From the NCBI GenBank assembly GCA_019057635.1, contig DXJL01000133.1, positions 1 to 64,000 of the forward strand: DNA of 64,000 nucleotides. Direction: 5' to 3'. The notes below the pieces were generated by a model, which saw only the letters and a program-made list of their open reading frames with translations, was not told the DNA's origin and ran no database searches. Shown here one piece after another: positions 2,863-19,206 of the stretch. Every line of letters starts with the position of its first letter. Positions within the stretch are counted from its first letter, which is position 1. The position numbers and the translations under genes are program-made. This DNA is from Candidatus Heimdallarchaeota archaeon. GTDB lineage: Archaea > Asgardarchaeota > Heimdallarchaeia > Hodarchaeales > Hodarchaeaceae.

Positions 2863-5800
2863 ATGAAAAGGCAGAACATGAAGTTGATAAATATGACAAC
2901 TCCAGAAGTTAGTTTTACGCTAAGAAAAAGTGAAACAAAAATCTTAAACACATTAATATCCTTTGGTGGTCAAAACAAACATGATCTTATTCTTATTTCT
3001 GATGTACAAGAAGAAAAAGCTGAGCAAGCAATTTCAGAATTGATAAAAAAAGGATTTATTAGGCTGAACGAAGAAACAGGGCGTATTTCCGCTACTTTAC
3101 CCGTTTCTGCATTAACACGAATGTTCACTGAAAATATGGCTCTCATAGAAAGTATGAAAGAGAACTATAAAGAGGAATTTCATAGCTCAAAAAATTCTGT
3201 AGAAGAAACATTAAACAAGTTTCAGGAAACAGTGAATGACGGTTTCAAAGTTCTAAAAACTCAAAATGAAGAATTAGAGGTATCAATAAAAGAGGCCATA
3301 GAAGAAAAAGAAAAACTTAACCACTCGCAGTTAGACGAGATGGTGGATCAAGTAGTTACTTCAATGAATACAAAAATAACTGAAACTCAAAATTCTGTTC
3401 AGACAAGTATCTCAGAAGGGACATCGAAATTAGATAAACACTGGGGTAGAGCCATTGATGAATTTCAAAACTTACCTGACTCTGGGACCCGTTCTCTCAA
3501 AGAATCTATCACTAAATATGAACAAGAGTTAAATGAGATAATAAAATCCTCAGTTGAAAAAATTAATAGTATCCAAACTCAATTTAATGGTCTACTAGGT
3601 ACAATTGAATCTGAATCCGTTACTAGGATACAAGAATTCTACTCGAACACCGATACTGTTGGTAGTGACCTGAAAGTTAATTTAAATACTGGATTACAAG
3701 AATCTCGCAAACACGAAAAAGAATTCATCAAGGAAGTACGTCAACATGTCAGAACCTCACTCGAAAATGATGTACTAAACGCATTGAAGGTAGTAATTTC
3801 AGATTTATCAAAAGAAATTGATAATGATATAAATGAGGCCCTAAAACTTGTTGTTCAGCAAACTGATAAAGCAATCACTGCAAGTTCAGAACAAATGAAA
3901 ACAGAGTTTACTGAATTCACTGAAGATGCAAAAGAATTAATCCAAGAACAAAAAATCTCATTAAATGTCCTTGAAACAGAAATTTCGGAGATTACAGCAG
4001 AGCAGAAGCTAGAATCAGTAAGAGACTTATTTCTAAGCCAATTGCAAGCCGGTCAAACAACAGAACTTAATCAATTGGAAACAAGCTTCCGGCACACTCA
4101 AAAATCAGTAATCGATCTTGTTGAGTCTTTAAGAAATTCTGCAAAAGCTAAATTAGCCCAACAAGGAGTAGAGTTTGAAAAGCTACTCAATAATTTTTCT
4201 GATTTAATTGACCAATCGGTGAGCCGGAAGGAACTGGATATTACTAGATTACAACAACTATCTCAATCTATTGAACAATTATTAAGAAATTTGCTTGTCT
4301 CAATTCCAATGCGGACAGATCAATTTAGAATTTCCTTGAAAGATTCATTAGAAGGCACTAGTAAAAGTTTACAAGAAGAATATACAGAATCTTCGAGTGG
4401 TTCAGTAAGTAAAATTTACGAAAAACTTGCTGATTCTCAACAAAGAATTGAATCTATGACTAATGAAACCCTGGATGAAAGTAAAAATGAAATTGAGAAA
4501 GTGATTGCCTCATCAGATCAATTTGAATCTGGTATATCTGCTCTTCAAGAAGATTATCTGAGTAAAGTTGAAAATCGATTTGATCAGAGAGCTAAAGTGA
4601 TGAATACAGAGTTAAAAGCAATAACTCGCAATTTCCAACAATTACTTGAGGGAATTGAAACAGGAGTCGGAGGCATTCATTCTCGTTTGACTTCAGAAGG
4701 CGTTACAAATATTTCTGCTGTTGAAACCTCTCTTCAGAGCAAACTGACTCAACTTAGGAGTGAAATAACTACCATATTTTCACAGAGTCAATCTGAGGCG
4801 CAAGAATTTGTTAGTTCGTTAAATGAAAATTTACAAACCCATTTAGAACGCACATTAGACGTAATTAAAGAGGGTTTTAGTCAAGTCAAATCTGAATATA
4901 ATTTAGAGCTCTCAAATCAGTTAGAACAGCTTAATAGCAAAAGCAAGGAACAACAAGACACTTTAATTGAAACAATAGAAGCTTTTTCACAGAAAGCATC
5001 CTTTAGTGGTTTTAAATCGAATCTCGAGAAAACGCTTGAAGAAAATCAAAGTACCCTAAATGAATTTATTGCTGAAAATCGAAGCAATTTGGATGAAGTT
5101 ATTTCTTTACAGAAAGTAAATATTACCAAATATCAAGAAAAAGGACCTACGGATATATTAGGGTTTATTAATCAAATTCAATCCAATGCTACCACTCAAA
5201 ACAAGAATATCAAAGACACACTGGAAGACCTACTTTCCTATCACAACAGTTTTTCAGATTCAACGATGTCTGAGGTAACAACATTAATTCGTCAGGTTCA
5301 TGAGAGTGGAGATAAGCTTAAATCAATTCTTAATGAATCTTTACAGACTATGTTAACCAACCTGAATCGTACAAGCGAAAATATTGATTTATATTATTCT
5401 GATACGCTAACGGAACTAGAAAATCAGCTTGGAGTCGCTTCAGGATTTGTTACCTCTGAAATTGACACTTCCTTCCAATCGATCCGTAGTGAAATTGAGT
5501 CATTGAAGGAGGGTATGGAAAATACAGTAGCAAGGCTTAATACAGATCTCAAAGGAATAGTTTCTGATTCAGACCAAGAATTCAAGAGTAATGTTCCTGA
5601 AATCACAAAACAATTTTCTAGCGCTTTTGATACTTTGGTAAAAGAAAAAACATCCTCTAACTTAGAGTTACAAAATACACTCTCTGATAATATGACAAAT
5701 TTTATGACATCTTATAGTTCTCAAGTGTCTGCTATTAGAACAAAGCTACATGATTTATTAGCTCAATTTAACAAAGCTATTGAGTCGAACCTTGAAAATT

Positions 5801-7077
5801 TAGACGTTATTGTCGAAACCAATATAAGTCAAGCTTTGAAAAGATTCGAATCTATATATCATATCGATTCAAGCAAAGAAGATCCATTTGGTTTGCGAGA
5901 TATTCATTCCAAAGTCATAGTGGCAAATAAACGGTTAAAATCCGTTGTCTCTGATTCAATTCGCACTCAGCTTGAAGACTTTGAAAGTAACATACCTGAT
6001 CTACAAACCTCTTTTGACGCTATTCACACTCAATCTGAGGAAGATTTGACAAAATCTATCGAGGAATTATCAGATATAATTTCAAGTTCTCAAATGACTC
6101 TTACTACCGATCTGCATAATTATCTAAATGAGGAAAGAGAGCAATTGGATTTTTCAGAATTGCGTGATAGCCTGAAGGATGTTTTACAAGGTTTTAATGA
6201 AGACTCAACCCAAAATATTGAACAACTCTCTCTTGATTTTACCGACAGTATTCAACGTGCAATTAATGAGGTTAACAAATCACGGGAAGAAATACAATCC
6301 ATTTTAGCTGATTTGACGGAAGTAATGAAGGAGCGAATTATCCAGTCAACTACACAATTAACCTCTTTGAAATCCGAACTGAGTACAGAAGTGGAAGGGA
6401 TGAGTAGTGAATTTTCAAAAAATTTATCTACAGATCTAGAATCGTACAATAATGATATAGAAAAATTTAATTTAGAAAACAAAGGGAATATGGCCAAGTT
6501 TATCCAATCATTGAATAATGAAATTGAAACTTATCTCTCAGAATTTTTAAACAAAACCAATGAGATTCTAAACGGGATAAAAGATTCCCACTCACAGCAA
6601 GCCGATGTTTTAGAAACTTTAGAGACTGAATTATCTGAAAATGAGCCAATTTCATATTTACGGTTGCTAAAATTATCAACAAATCATGCGATCAATGAAT
6701 ACTTTATGAAGCTAATAGAAAAAGCGTCTAAACAAGTTACATTATATATGTCAGACCCTACTATTCTTTCATCAGCTGATCTCAAATCTATTCCCTCAGA
6801 AAAACGAATTTGGATTTTTACAAACTTTAATTTCAGTAAAAAGGGTAAAAAATGGTTTACTGAGATTGGTAAGCAAGTAAATATAAATTTACGTAAATCT
6901 AAAGGTGCTAGTAATATTACTGGGATATTAGCGGTCAAGGATGAAGATCAAGCCGTTGTCTTACCTGATGAAGTTGGTTTTACCACACTTGATGAGAAAT
7001 TTGTGGCTTACTTATTGAACATATTAAATATGTTAAAGGGTTCATCTCTCAGACCAAGAAAAGGATCTGGTCAATAA
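2863..7077 (+). CDS. Giant TrmB-like protein: N-terminal winged HTH, ~1150-aa helical/coiled-coil rod, C-terminal TrmB/PLD-like alpha/beta domain
   Basis: The N-terminus (LRKSETKILNTLISFG...AISELIKKGFI...ISATLPVSAL) follows the TrmB wHTH pattern. The middle is E/S/Q/L-rich and Pro/Gly-poor. The C-terminus (INEYFMKLIEKASKQVTLYM...ILAVKDEDQAVVL...DEKFVAYL) resembles the TrmB effector domain. The start may be the ATG at 2893. Confidence 0.7.
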   Translation: MKRQNMKLINMTTPEVSFTLRKSETKILNTLISFGGQNKHDLILISDVQEEKAEQAISELIKKGFIRLNEETGRISATLPVSALTRMFTENMALIESMKENYKEEFHSSKNSVEETLNKFQETVNDGFKVLKTQNEELEVSIKEAIEEKEKLNHSQLDEMVDQVVTSMNTKITETQNSVQTSISEGTSKLDKHWGRAIDEFQNLPDSGTRSLKESITKYEQELNEIIKSSVEKINSIQTQFNGLLGTIESESVTRIQEFYSNTDTVGSDLKVNLNTGLQESRKHEKEFIKEVRQHVRTSLENDVLNALKVVISDLSKEIDNDINEALKLVVQQTDKAITASSEQMKTEFTEFTEDAKELIQEQKISLNVLETEISEITAEQKLESVRDLFLSQLQAGQTTELNQLETSFRHTQKSVIDLVESLRNSAKAKLAQQGVEFEKLLNNFSDLIDQSVSRKELDITRLQQLSQSIEQLLRNLLVSIPMRTDQFRISLKDSLEGTSKSLQEEYTESSSGSVSKIYEKLADSQQRIESMTNETLDESKNEIEKVIASSDQFESGISALQEDYLSKVENRFDQRAKVMNTELKAITRNFQQLLEGIETGVGGIHSRLTSEGVTNISAVETSLQSKLTQLRSEITTIFSQSQSEAQEFVSSLNENLQTHLERTLDVIKEGFSQVKSEYNLELSNQLEQLNSKSKEQQDTLIETIEAFSQKASFSGFKSNLEKTLEENQSTLNEFIAENRSNLDEVISLQKVNITKYQEKGPTDILGFINQIQSNATTQNKNIKDTLEDLLSYHNSFSDSTMSEVTTLIRQVHESGDKLKSILNESLQTMLTNLNRTSENIDLYYSDTLTELENQLGVASGFVTSEIDTSFQSIRSEIESLKEGMENTVARLNTDLKGIVSDSDQEFKSNVPEITKQFSSAFDTLVKEKTSSNLELQNTLSDNMTNFMTSYSSQVSAIRTKLHDLLAQFNKAIESNLENLDVIVETNISQALKRFESIYHIDSSKEDPFGLRDIHSKVIVANKRLKSVVSDSIRTQLEDFESNIPDLQTSFDAIHTQSEEDLTKSIEELSDIISSSQMTLTTDLHNYLNEEREQLDFSELRDSLKDVLQGFNEDSTQNIEQLSLDFTDSIQRAINEVNKSREEIQSILADLTEVMKERIIQSTTQLTSLKSELSTEVEGMSSEFSKNLSTDLESYNNDIEKFNLENKGNMAKFIQSLNNEIETYLSEFLNKTNEILNGIKDSHSQQADVLETLETELSENEPISYLRLLKLSTNHAINEYFMKLIEKASKQVTLYMSDPTILSSADLKSIPSEKRIWIFTNFNFSKKGKKWFTEIGKQVNINLRKSKGASNITGILAVKDEDQAVVLPDEVGFTTLDEKFVAYLLNILNMLKGSSLRPRKGSGQ

Positions 7078-12846: not shown

Positions 12847-13353
12847 TTAAAATGGGCGTTTCTGCCATGATAAATAGGTTTCAACCCAGCAAATTATCGT
12901 AGCTATTCCCCCAAAAAGAAGTGCGAAAACTTTGCTTGTAGTTAGTGGAAAGCTTATTCCCCGAAAGAAGAGAAGATACCCTGCAAAAAGAATAGAGACA
13001 AAAACAGCATAAAAGAGGAATCGGGGTAGAGTATAGTTTCTTATAAGAATAAATTGGTTTAGTGCTCCAATGTCGACTTTTTTTGCGATTTCAAAGTTTC
13101 CAAATCTATTTTTTCGTATTACTCCCAAAGTTTCAAGTTTTTCTAAATGATAACTCGAAACACTTGGAGAGGACAGCCCTAATCCTCGCTGAATCTCTCG
13201 AACTCCTGCAGCTTCCTTTTTTCTCAGTAAATAAAAATAGACATCAAGCGTTGTACCCTTAATTGCAGTTTCATAATTGACTGACCGATCATTTTGCTTG
13301 CTGACCATCTTTCCTCTCCTATTCAGAATTCTTTTCCCATAAACCTTCAACAT
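12847..13353 (-). CDS. Winged-HTH regulator with two C-terminal transmembrane helices
   Basis: GTTLDVYFYLL...GVREIQRGLGLSSPSVSSYHLEKLETLGVI, followed by LPRFLFYAVF and two hydrophobic segments. Probable start is the ATG at 13308. Confidence 0.85.
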   Translation of the reverse strand: MLKVYGKRILNRRGKMVSKQNDRSVNYETAIKGTTLDVYFYLLRKKEAAGVREIQRGLGLSSPSVSSYHLEKLETLGVIRKNRFGNFEIAKKVDIGALNQFILIRNYTLPRFLFYAVFVSILFAGYLLFFRGISFPLTTSKVFALLFGGIATIICWVETYLSWQKRPF

Positions 13354-13481: not shown

Positions 13482-13958
13482 GTGGAAATTATGACATTTA
13501 GAATCTCTGAGGATGAAAAAAAGGATAATGACACCTTAGAAAAAATCCTTGCTTCATTAAATACTACAGCTCAAGTGAAACCTGAAATCAAAGATTACCT
13601 GGACACATTATCAAACCGTATAGTTGACTTAACTCGTGATTATTATGCAGCGATTCTATATCTCTTCACATCTCCACTATCATTGCATCAACGGTTGATT
13701 CTTATGCAATTGGTTACACTCTACCCAAAAGGAAGTTCAGGAATAGAATTAGCAAGAAGTTTAGGAATATCAGAGAAAAGTAAATCAATATATAGGGATT
13801 TAAAGTATTTGCGAACTCAACATTTAATTTCCACTGAAGACATTCATCCACGATTAAAATTAGTTTATGCTAATTCTGAAAATCGCTTTATGAATCGACT
13901 AATCGAACTAGTTCAGATACATGGACGTGAATTGAAAAATATTATTCAAGAAACATAA
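13482..13958 (+). CDS. Winged-HTH DNA-binding protein
   Basis: LSLHQRLILMQL...SGIELARSLGISEKSKSIYRDLKYLRTQHLI. Confidence 0.75.
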   Translation: MEIMTFRISEDEKKDNDTLEKILASLNTTAQVKPEIKDYLDTLSNRIVDLTRDYYAAILYLFTSPLSLHQRLILMQLVTLYPKGSSGIELARSLGISEKSKSIYRDLKYLRTQHLISTEDIHPRLKLVYANSENRFMNRLIELVQIHGRELKNIIQET

Positions 13959-13978: not shown

Positions 13979-14617
13979 ATGTTACGAGGTCCAATTACTA
14001 CTATACGACTTGTTCAGATATCATATGTCATCTTGGTCTCAGTATGTATTACTGGGTCAATACTCTTCTTGTCAAATAGTATAATGACCCCAACATCAAC
14101 AGATACTGGGCCAGGACCACAATTATTTGAAAATATATCTTTTGACACGGCTGTAGCGCGTATAAGTGATCCTTTGTCGTTTTTCCCTAATATTTTATGG
14201 GCTTTTATTCCATTAACTATAGCTATTTTCATAATAGCCTTCTACCTCCCTACAAGGTCAAGCCTTGGCCTATCTAAATCCCACTTCCAAAAAAAATCAC
14301 AATTAAACCGTTTTAATCTCCCTGTACGAGGATATACAATCAATCTTGACACGGGTTATATTAGAATCACACGAAAGCTATCTTCATTGAGTGGTTTATT
14401 ACTTCGAGAGATGAATTTTACAGTTAATCTTCCGTTGGACTACGCTGATAAGAAACGTATATTTGATTTCCTTGTAGGTGAGAAAGTGAATTATACAAAA
14501 ACACATGTTCTTCTACAAAAAACCGTGAAAATTCGGAATATTCCGCTTCTAATTGTTAGGACGAAGGCAATAATTGCTACTGTTGATACTACAATTGATC
14601 CCCCCTCTCCAAAGTAA
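13979..14617 (+). CDS. Hypothetical membrane protein (2 TM plus basic soluble domain)
   Basis: Two hydrophobic helices. Starts 20 bp after the wHTH gene on the same strand. Confidence 0.65.
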   Translation: MLRGPITTIRLVQISYVILVSVCITGSILFLSNSIMTPTSTDTGPGPQLFENISFDTAVARISDPLSFFPNILWAFIPLTIAIFIIAFYLPTRSSLGLSKSHFQKKSQLNRFNLPVRGYTINLDTGYIRITRKLSSLSGLLLREMNFTVNLPLDYADKKRIFDFLVGEKVNYTKTHVLLQKTVKIRNIPLLIVRTKAIIATVDTTIDPPSPK

Positions 14618-14703: not shown

Positions 14704-15444
14704 TTGACACGACTTGTAGCATATTCAGTGACTTCTGACGGCCATTGGGATCCAGTGGCGTTTTCTCTTAAAGATCTTAAAGCTAAAGAAGTTTTCATCC
14801 TTGTTGATGACGAAAAAAGGAAAATTTGGATCTGGATAGGAAGAGATGCCACAGTTAAAACTCGCTTTATTTCATCCACTGCTGCGACTGAGATTCGTAG
14901 ATTGTATGGCTTTACTTTTCGTGTACAAACGATTGATCAAGACGAAGAATCACGTGAATTTTCAGAATGTATAGAATCGATCCCAAAAAGAGGTCTGGTA
15001 CCAGAATTAGCCGAAGGACAAAAGGAGAAAAAAGCAACTAAAAACACTCGATCCTCTTCCGCCGCAAAAAAAGTTACTCCAAGAACTAAAGCGAGTAAAT
15101 CGACAATAAAAAAAGCCAGTGCCACAAAAACTACACGTAAAACTCCTGTGCGAAAAACTACACCAAGAAAAACAGCGACCAAAACCACACGTAAACCCAC
15201 AAAAGCAAAAACCCAAAAAACTACACCTAAACCTAAATCACGTAGTTCAAAAGAGGTTCTGTCATTAAACAGTTATTTACCACAAGATACAAGCATTATT
15301 ACCACCCCACCTTGTCCTGAATGTGGCGTTGGAAATTTACTGCCTTATTCTGAAAATATTGTCCAGGAAGGAAGAGAAGATTTGATACTACCCTTTGCTA
15401 AGTGGGTTTGTTCAAAATGTGAGTACTCACCTACTCACCAATAA
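14704..15444 (+). CDS. Gelsolin-domain protein with Lys/Thr-rich low-complexity tract and C-terminal Zn ribbon
   Basis: EVFILVD...IWIWIGRDA...RFIS...IDQDEESREF matches the gelsolin repeat pattern (F-I-L-D, W-x-G, Q-G-x-E-S-x-x-F). The C-terminus has CPECG...CSKC. Confidence 0.8.
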   Translation: MTRLVAYSVTSDGHWDPVAFSLKDLKAKEVFILVDDEKRKIWIWIGRDATVKTRFISSTAATEIRRLYGFTFRVQTIDQDEESREFSECIESIPKRGLVPELAEGQKEKKATKNTRSSSAAKKVTPRTKASKSTIKKASATKTTRKTPVRKTTPRKTATKTTRKPTKAKTQKTTPKPKSRSSKEVLSLNSYLPQDTSIITTPPCPECGVGNLLPYSENIVQEGREDLILPFAKWVCSKCEYSPTHQ

Positions 15445-18471: not shown

Positions 18472-19206
18472 TTGATAGGCGTTAACATCACAACAAAGAA
18501 TGGACTTTTACTTTTTTCCCATTCATTTATGCCTGGTTTTTCTGATGTTGACGAAGATTTACGGGCGGGTTTAATGAGTGCGGTTCTCAATGCAGTTAAA
18601 GAAACCGATGACGAATCAGGTATAAAGACAATTGATCAAGGAAAATACATTGTTCACATAATAGAGGGAAATTACACGTATGGAATATTTTTCTCTCATG
18701 AGCACGATATAAAGGAAATGAATTTTGCAAATACAACGTTGCGGAATTTTGAAACTACATTTAAGAAGGAATTAGAAGACGAGTTATCCTTTGATAATCA
18801 TCAATTCGTTGATTTCACCGATTTCTTGAAAAGAGAATACAATTCCTTGATCTCAATTGATGTTGTCGGATTAAGCAAGATCATTGATATAATGGACAAC
18901 TCATTTTTTTCTGATTATATCTTGCTAGAAAAACCGAATTTTCATCAGGTTTTCACCACAATCTCACTTCCTGACGTTTATCCTGATGCTAATAGTCTTG
19001 CCCAGATGTGTAAAGTAATCATTGAGTCAAGTATATTGATTGGTCAAGAGATTGAACAACTTCAGTTTTCATTAGGTAGGGAATACATGGTATTCGTCGA
19101 TCGGTTTAGAAAGTATGTAGTTATCATCATTATCATAAAGAAAAATCGAGAAAAAGCACAAAAGGAAATTATCCGCTTAAAAAGTAAAATTGTTAGCTCA
19201 CTCTGA
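18472..19206 (+). CDS. Longin-domain protein with a second roadblock/longin-like domain
   Basis: The N-terminal GVNITTKNGLLLFSHSF...DEDLRAGLMSAV...F-x-x-x-F pattern is typical of Asgard/eukaryotic longins. A second alpha/beta unit of about 115 aa follows. Confidence 0.68.
   Translation: MIGVNITTKNGLLLFSHSFMPGFSDVDEDLRAGLMSAVLNAVKETDDESGIKTIDQGKYIVHIIEGNYTYGIFFSHEHDIKEMNFANTTLRNFETTFKKELEDELSFDNHQFVDFTDFLKREYNSLISIDVVGLSKIIDIMDNSFFSDYILLEKPNFHQVFTTISLPDVYPDANSLAQMCKVIIESSILIGQEIEQLQFSLGREYMVFVDRFRKYVVIIIIIKKNREKAQKEIIRLKSKIVSSL

Follow-up and report, generated by a model that had tools for sequence, protein, structure and literature searches.

A Hodarchaeales gelsolin-domain protein with a polybasic linker and a C-terminal zinc ribbon

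What might a protein do that joins a gelsolin domain to a long, strongly basic tract and a zinc ribbon? Such a protein is encoded on the forward strand at 14704..15444 of the window, a 64,000-nucleotide stretch of contig DXJL01000133.1 from a Hodarchaeales genome. Hodarchaeales has been proposed as the order nearest to the archaeal ancestor of eukaryotes, and gelsolins, with profilins, are the main Asgard actin regulators recognised so far. The published work drawn on here is above all Akil 2020 (PMC7444086) and Akil 2022 (PMC9433394). Judged from its sequence, the protein is a lineage-specific variant of described Asgard gelsolin designs, a one-domain form with a Link-Zn tail in which the linker is basic instead of acidic. 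We give an even chance to the reading that it binds actin independently of calcium and carries a docking module on a tether, as a member of a class that can be called "one gelsolin domain plus tail".

The gene and its gelsolin domain

The gene and the parts of its product are as follows.

14704..15444, + strand: whole gelsolin gene, 246 codons from TTG followed by a stop (open reading frame list and translation)
14704..15003, + strand: single gelsolin domain of ProGel type, residues 1-100 (Pfam, AlphaFold2 model, Foldseek and conserved motifs)
15004..15294, + strand: disordered K/T-rich polybasic linker, residues 101-197 (low model confidence and composition)
15028-15252, + strand: acid-free linker core, residues 109-183, 75 amino acids (residue count)
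15295..15441, + strand: zinc ribbon, residues 198-246 (I-T-T-P-P-C-P-x-C ... L-L-P-Y-S ... L-P-F-x-x-W-x-C-S-x-C)
15313-15324, + strand: CPEC, residues 204-207 (translation)
15409-15420, + strand: CSKC, residues 236-239 (translation)

This is a real, conserved gene. The 246-residue protein has 42 homologues at 39-100% identity; counts over 39 refer to the full-length ones, three fragments being left out. Gelsolin domain, linker and zinc ribbon occur together in all 39, so the three-part architecture that the original prediction had read from this locus is kept in its orthologues. The nearest named record comes from the Heimdallarchaeota metagenome-assembled genome B3_Heim (92% identity for this protein, 92-97% for its neighbours), and the other 17 full-length loci are labelled mostly Hodarchaeota or Heimdallarchaeota.

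A stop codon lies directly 5' of the TTG (GAT TAA TTG), while the gene-caller record, P0002, starts at a GTG at codon 9 and yields 238 residues. Across 18 orthologous loci, the same start position is occupied by TTG in 12 and by ATG in two, and in the other four the frame begins further upstream. Residues 2-8 are conserved in the 42-sequence alignment and form the first strand of the AlphaFold2 model. Because the position is kept and these residues are both conserved and modelled as a strand, the TTG is the better supported start. A metatranscriptome contig of 231 nucleotides maps to 14709-14935 with zero differences, and three short metatranscriptome contigs in all fall on the three co-directional genes, namely the gelsolin gene and the two upstream of it. 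This is a weak sign of transcription, as DNA carry-over is possible.

Residues 1-100 adopt a gelsolin fold, in which a long helix packs on a central sheet, as the original prediction had proposed. Pfam PF00626 matches residues 17-86, in one stretch only, at 21.5 bits (cut-off 21; E 2.2e-4), and scores 23.8 bits in the search of the genome. Searching PDB sequences with phmmer returned villin (E 9.9e-7) together with Thor 2DGel3, Loki 2DGel and Heimdall 2DGel, over an E range of 1e-6 to 1e-4. The AlphaFold2 model, computed from the 42-sequence alignment of homologues, has a predicted local distance difference test (pLDDT) score of 83-93 over residues 1-90. Foldseek gave 91 PDB matches for the domain at E<=1e-3, with a gelsolin-family structure in every match listed. 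The top match is Thorarchaeota ProGel with actin (7c2f_B), at a TM score of 0.92 and a root-mean-square deviation of 1.1 Å over 87 columns.

The WxG motif, a gelsolin signature (PMC9433394), is present as W44-I45-G46, with W44 and G46 at least 90% conserved in the 42 sequences. The long helix, F55-R66, is nearly invariant across the same set. At the positions of V-D-E-K in Loki2DGel the aligned residues here are V-K-T-R, and these positions are nearly invariant among the homologues; the calcium-binding role of these residues is presumed partly from the gelsolin literature. One-domain Asgard gelsolins have no calcium sites according to Akil 2020 (PMC7444086). Since the acidic site positions are also replaced in the present protein, calcium-independent action of its gelsolin domain is likely. 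Directly after the domain, a segment I-P-K-x-G-[IL]-[VG]-P at residues 93-100 is conserved (P94 in 39/42, G97 in 41/42, P100 in 41/42). In 2DGels, the first 10-20 residues past the gelsolin domains lie on actin (PMC9433394), and by analogy the conserved segment of the Hodarchaeales protein may do the same.

Thor ProGel (7C2F chain B), the best structural match to residues 1-90, resembles this domain as a single domain without calcium sites. It differs in that ProGel has no tail, and the Hodarchaeales genome holds a tail-less paralogue of its own. Could the fold then serve some purpose other than actin binding, as in Sec23, with the basic tail and zinc ribbon binding RNA or ribosomes? The Pfam score is barely over its cut-off, ProGel binds actin weakly (PMC7444086), and Akil 2020 describes Sec23a as a gelsolin fold without shown actin binding (PMC7444086). 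However, the sequence and fold searches led to gelsolins that bind actin, to villin and to Asgard gelsolins crystallised together with actin. Both the WxG motif and the long helix are conserved, and the genome carries four paralogous gelsolin-domain genes alongside one actin. We regard such a non-actin role as the least probable of the readings considered.

The polybasic linker

The linker is a predicted-disordered tether whose sequence drifts while its flexibility and positive charge are kept. In the AlphaFold2 model, pLDDT is 39-51 across residues 101-200, and no helix is modelled past residue 91. Its 22 K and 7 R stand against 1 D and 4 E, giving a net charge of +24 and an isoelectric point (pI) of 11.3; a further 20 residues are T and 12 are S. 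At 0.36 nm per residue, 97 residues correspond by arithmetic to a contour length of ~35 nm. The features that had been read from this K/T-rich basic tract are all present: the acid-free run, the duplicated ATKTTRK (at 140 and 158) and the TP-basic motifs TPRT (125), TPVRK (147), TPRK (153) and TPKP (174).

Pairs of the 39 homologues share a mean identity of 0.66 in the gelsolin domain, 0.63 in the zinc ribbon and 0.21 in the linker, whose length ranges from 54 to 103 residues. Net linker charge is positive in 38/39 (range -1 to +27), and linker and zinc domain taken together are positive in 39/39 (+4 to +28). The two parts share this charge differently between clades. The closer clade pairs a very basic linker with a mostly acidic zinc domain; in the more distant one the zinc domain is basic, and the linker is both shorter and less basic. 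Thus both the N-terminal gelsolin fold and the basic charge of the tail hold up in the orthologues. The sole well-conserved linker position is K122 (38/42). A WH2-like L-K-K-T/V motif was considered here and ruled out, because K122 alone is conserved and no Leu is.

We scanned all six-frame open reading frames of at least 100 residues in the window's genome for K/R-rich, acid-poor 60-residue windows (>=17 K/R, <=1 D/E). Seventeen frames contain one, and the gelsolin tract ties for the top score. Among the 17, one further tract is of the K/T type. This other acid-free tract is an N-terminal extension of ~110 residues on a candidate translation initiation factor aIF2-gamma (C20:51974-53542, - strand, genome G000), identified as such from GTPase motifs by eye.

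The tract had been likened to histone H1 and proposed to be phospho-regulated. The likeness holds for composition, in that both are long, acid-poor, Lys-rich disordered tracts with a few T-P-x-K/R motifs. Unlike H1, the protein has no linker-histone globular domain (no such Pfam family at E<=1), its tract is K/T/S-rich rather than K/A/P-rich, and orthologues do not preserve the motifs. Across the 39 homologues a linker has 0-7 [ST]P motifs, with a median of 1. Because these motifs are not conserved, the H1-like, phospho-regulated reading is unsupported, and conserved regulation of this kind is not indicated.

A tail of this charge could also act on actin itself. Polycations bundle filamentous actin (F-actin) in vitro, and the tail is net positive in every full-length homologue. 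The protein could accordingly be a self-contained filament bundler or severing enhancer, in which the polycationic linker, with or without the zinc ribbon, provides a second actin site on the acidic filament and bridges two subunits or filaments with no other partner. Akil 2020 raised the hypothesis that the 1DGelX tail contains an actin side-binding element, and reported that Thor 1DGelX severs actin independently of calcium, with some bundling too (PMC7444086). Against this explanation, neither the Loki2DGel zinc domain nor the Heim2DGel tail associated with F-actin (PMC9433394), and related Gel-Link-Zn proteins have acidic linkers. Furthermore, simple charge leaves unexplained why a folded zinc module is conserved at an identity of 0.63. 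We consider the bundler unlikely, though it retains some weight.

The zinc ribbon and the proposed mechanism

The C-terminal zinc ribbon of the original prediction is borne out by its cysteines. CPEC and CSKC are spaced 28 residues apart at the extreme C-terminus; each of their four Cys columns reaches 90% conservation or more in the 42 sequences and is invariant in 16/16 rows of the zinc-domain alignment. Residues 201-240 reach a pLDDT of 87-91 in the full-length AlphaFold2 model, with two long strands (211-219 and 227-236), and the domain modelled alone reaches 78. It is present in single copy in the genome. In one homologue, P0040 (212 amino acids), C-P-V-G replaces C-P-x-C and the second zinc ligand is lost; a sequencing error or a decayed copy is possible.

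Sequence and fold searches identify a generic zinc ribbon only. A fold search with VIA-align gave 11 chains at Z>=2, the best, at 2.8, being the MqsA N-terminal zinc domain. Foldseek returned nothing at E<=1e-3, with all E values at least 0.25, and profile searches of PDB sequences had ribosomal eS31 as best match (E 0.14 and 0.016). Pfam, run on 26 zinc-domain sequences, gave nothing above cut-off for the window's domain; 22 of the 26 matched DUF7479 weakly (best E 5.2e-4). In the ESM Atlas the best score, 0.81, fell inside the range of shuffled controls.

These matches bear on a further possibility, that the protein is an H1-like, phospho-regulated coupler of actin to DNA or RNA. Proteins that bind nucleic acids often have Lys-rich tails and zinc ribbons. 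The best matches of the zinc domain, weak as they are, are to MqsA and to ribbons from ribosomal proteins and transcription factors, and the genome's other K/T-rich tract sits on the candidate aIF2-gamma. Yet all of these fold matches are weak (Z <=2.8; Foldseek E >=0.25), Pfam detects neither a linker-histone nor another DNA-binding family, the [ST]P motifs are not conserved, and relatives have acidic linkers. Such a coupler is highly improbable.

A profile of the zinc domain, searched against 1.84 billion representative sequences, recovered 39 proteins at E<=1e-3. They comprise fragments or members of the gelsolin-Zn family, its relative P0053 and many free-standing proteins of 49-85 residues. 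These mini-proteins occur in scattered Asgard genomes, Loki-type included, and have in common with the gelsolin zinc ribbon the motif P-x-C-P-x-C-x-x-G-x-L-x-P-[LFY]-S ... W-x-C-S-x-C. Ten of their clusters were looked up by name: one member is labelled Asgard archaeon, and one carries a generic RNA-polymerase-M/TFIIS name. No gelsolin gene was found near the mini-protein genes at nine loci searched with a gelsolin profile, six of them with their open reading frames listed, so the loci give no split-gene clue.

To relate these modules to the zinc domain of Loki2DGel, we built a Loki profile from five Loki-type two-domain gelsolins with Link and Zn parts, taken from genomes of another family. 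The hhalign comparisons were as follows.

Hodarchaeales zinc domain against mini-proteins alone: 99.3%, E 2.5e-20
Mini-proteins against the Loki2DGel zinc domain: 91.0%, E 1.1e-6
Control, mini-proteins against the reversed Loki zinc alignment: 0.8%
Control, mini-proteins plus the window's zinc domain against 20 Cys-fixed column shuffles of the Loki zinc alignment: maximum 28.4%, 19/20 under 5%
Hodarchaeales zinc domain against the Loki zinc domain, direct: 10.5%, E 0.0029, not significant

By profile comparison, the Hodarchaeales zinc module is homologous to the free-standing mini-proteins. The Hodarchaeales and Loki zinc modules probably form one superfamily bridged by the free-standing forms, although this is not certain. 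The link is transitive only, because the direct profile comparison and the hidden Markov model searches fail to join the two. One mini-protein, L142:210-398 (- strand, genome G281), scores with both profiles (23.1 bits with the Loki 2DGel zinc profile, 12.6 bits with the Hodarchaeales one) and therefore bridges the two modules. It and L139:228-419 (- strand, genome G276) are free-standing zinc-ribbon proteins of 63-64 residues from other Asgard families.

How does this design compare with those described? Akil 2020 distinguished ProGel, 1DGelX (one gelsolin domain plus an unknown domain X) and 2DGel (PMC7444086). Like Thor 1DGelX, the Hodarchaeales protein continues past its one gelsolin domain into a long C-terminal extension that is not gelsolin, here of 146 residues; 1DGelX is calcium-independent by published data (PMC7444086), as is likely here. 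As far as the extensions can be compared by description, they differ: domain X is a predicted coiled coil, whereas here a disordered polybasic linker leads to a zinc ribbon. Loki2DGel and MKD1-2DGel carry two gelsolin domains, an acidic linker of 69-79 residues and a (CxxC)2 Zn domain (PMC9433394). They share with the present protein a gelsolin core, an unstructured linker of ~70-100 residues and a terminal (CxxC)2 zinc domain that is also found free-standing. In contrast, their two gelsolin domains bind calcium, while the single one here lacks the acidic site residues; their linkers have a pI of 4.6-4.7 against 11.3; and they occur in Loki-type genomes, the present family in a single Hodarchaeales family. 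The suggestion that the architecture was undescribed thus goes too far, given the Gel-Link-Zn arrangement of Loki2DGel and MKD1-2DGel and the one domain plus X of 1DGelX. In the literature on 1DGelX and on Asgard or Hodarchaeales gelsolins, as available to us, we found no description of a one-domain, basic-linker, zinc gelsolin; figure S1 in the supplementary information of Akil 2020, on Heimdall- and Loki-type architectures, may show the protein.

In the tethered actin binder that we favour, the ProGel-type gelsolin domain would bind actin without calcium control, as homology and fold suggest. The linker of ~97 residues would act as a spacer with unspecific affinity for polyanionic surfaces. 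The zinc ribbon would be a small docking module that anchors the protein to some cellular partner or structure other than actin, and the tether would let the gelsolin domain reach actin filaments near the docking site. Akil 2022 made a similar proposal for the Loki zinc domain, which is also free-standing and did not co-sediment with F-actin: it would bind a cellular feature or complex (PMC9433394).

Several points weigh against this reading. Actin binding by the gelsolin domain is itself a prediction from homology and fold, and Thor ProGel, the closest solved relative, binds rabbit actin weakly, with a dissociation constant of 337 µM (PMC7444086). Positive charge is not universal in the linkers, one of the 39 having a net charge of -1. 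Loki-type linkers are acidic, with a pI of 4.6-4.7 (PMC9433394), and the linker of the more distant collinear relative P0053 (199 amino acids, BLASTP E 4e-21) is acidic and Pro-rich. Because the linkers of both are acidic, the comparison argues that positive linker charge is a lineage-specific addition and not the core of the mechanism. For the zinc domain, the direct comparison with Loki is not significant, and in searches with the zinc profiles the Loki2DGel chain went unmatched among PDB sequences at E<=10, as did 2DGel-sized open reading frames in 400 Asgard genomes. Finally, synteny offers no hint of a partner for the gelsolin-Zn protein.

A wider version of the tethered-binder proposal would make the zinc ribbon an Asgard-wide cytoskeletal docking module that exists free-standing and has been joined to gelsolins on more than one occasion: to calcium-regulated forms with two domains in Lokiarchaeia, and to the one-domain ProGel-type in Hodarchaeales. 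The polycationic tether of Hodarchaeales would then be a primitive adaptor from actin filaments to a polyanionic structure such as the membrane, the nucleoid or ribosomes. We find this version distinctly unlikely. If the kinship of the zinc domains is true, it extends a module that was not consistently detectable outside Loki according to its describers (Akil 2022, PMC9433394), and puts the free-standing mini-proteins forward as candidates for that pathway. The protein does not alter how Asgard gelsolins are seen in general.

Distribution, paralogues and neighbouring genes

We searched 400 Asgard genomes with the zinc-domain profile for the same architecture. The gene is present in one copy each in 20/21 other genomes of the window's own family. 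It was found in none of the rest of the 400, among them two genomes from the order's other families (0/2) and 31 from the class's next family (0/31). Nine matches elsewhere belong to mini-proteins of the free-standing kind or to unrelated zinc-finger proteins. The one own-family genome without the gene is 93% complete and has other gelsolin paralogues only. A search for longer proteins carrying the zinc domain gave four candidates, none of which scored. The protein family is near-universal in one Hodarchaeales family. Since it connects an actin-binding-type domain through a charged tether to a conserved, putative docking module, it offers a concrete handle on what Asgard actin attaches to.

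The window's genome has five gelsolin-domain genes, that is, four paralogues besides this one. They include a two-domain gelsolin of 411 residues and the tail-less ProGel-like form, a 111-residue frame on contig C65. Two other paralogues, L005 (C118:22876-23739, + strand) and L006 (C191:28092-29003, - strand), each have one gelsolin domain, a Pro/Ser/Thr-rich linker and a C-terminal domain that matches no Pfam family. This genome thus contains the gelsolin-tether-module design at least three times, with a different end module in each case. The genome has a single actin gene; across 11 genomes of the family actin is 97-99% identical, and for the gelsolin protein the corresponding figure is 38-92%.

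Two co-directional genes lie directly upstream.

13482-13958, + strand: 158-residue protein with weak helix-turn-helix matches; upstream of the gelsolin gene in 18/18 orthologous loci
13979-14617, + strand: 212-residue protein without a Pfam match, in which two hydrophobic stretches are visible by eye; upstream in 18/18 loci

The 212-residue neighbour is a predicted membrane protein and evolves fast (27-92% identity). The gap from it to the gelsolin gene is 86 nucleotides here and up to about 540 elsewhere. The gelsolin gene lies inside a block of ~12 genes conserved in all 18 loci, with EMG1 methyltransferase, NTPase, LarB-like, LarC-like and Fpg-like genes among its members. Synteny was considered as a clue to function and rejected, since ~12 functionally unrelated genes are conserved together. 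No functional link can be drawn from the neighbours because the whole block, housekeeping genes included, is conserved as a unit.

This bears on the possibility that the protein links actin to a membrane, with the basic tract and the aromatic and hydrophobic residues of the zinc ribbon binding anionic lipids and keeping filaments attached to the cell membrane or within protrusions. Over 75 residues the strongly basic tract has no acid, and L-L-P-Y, F and W residues are conserved in the zinc domain. In human cells, GFP-1DGelX was concentrated at nuclear-envelope and endoplasmic-reticulum-like regions (PMC7444086), and actin-filled protrusions are described in cultured Hodarchaeales. On the other hand, Pfam detected no amphipathic or lipid-binding domain, and the adjacent membrane-protein gene sits in a wholly syntenic block. 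A membrane linker is, in our view, quite improbable.

Three further genes in the window were noted. A divergent 168-residue helix-turn-helix protein with a hydrophobic tail (12847-13353, - strand) is found in 16/18 loci. A 244-residue protein (18472-19206, + strand) matches no Pfam family but is well conserved in the syntenic block, with 52-93% identity in 13/18 loci. The only Pfam match of a 1404-residue protein (2863-7077, + strand) is to apolipoprotein-type helical repeats, at 90.1 bits against a cut-off of 90, which suggests a very long helical-repeat or coiled-coil protein.

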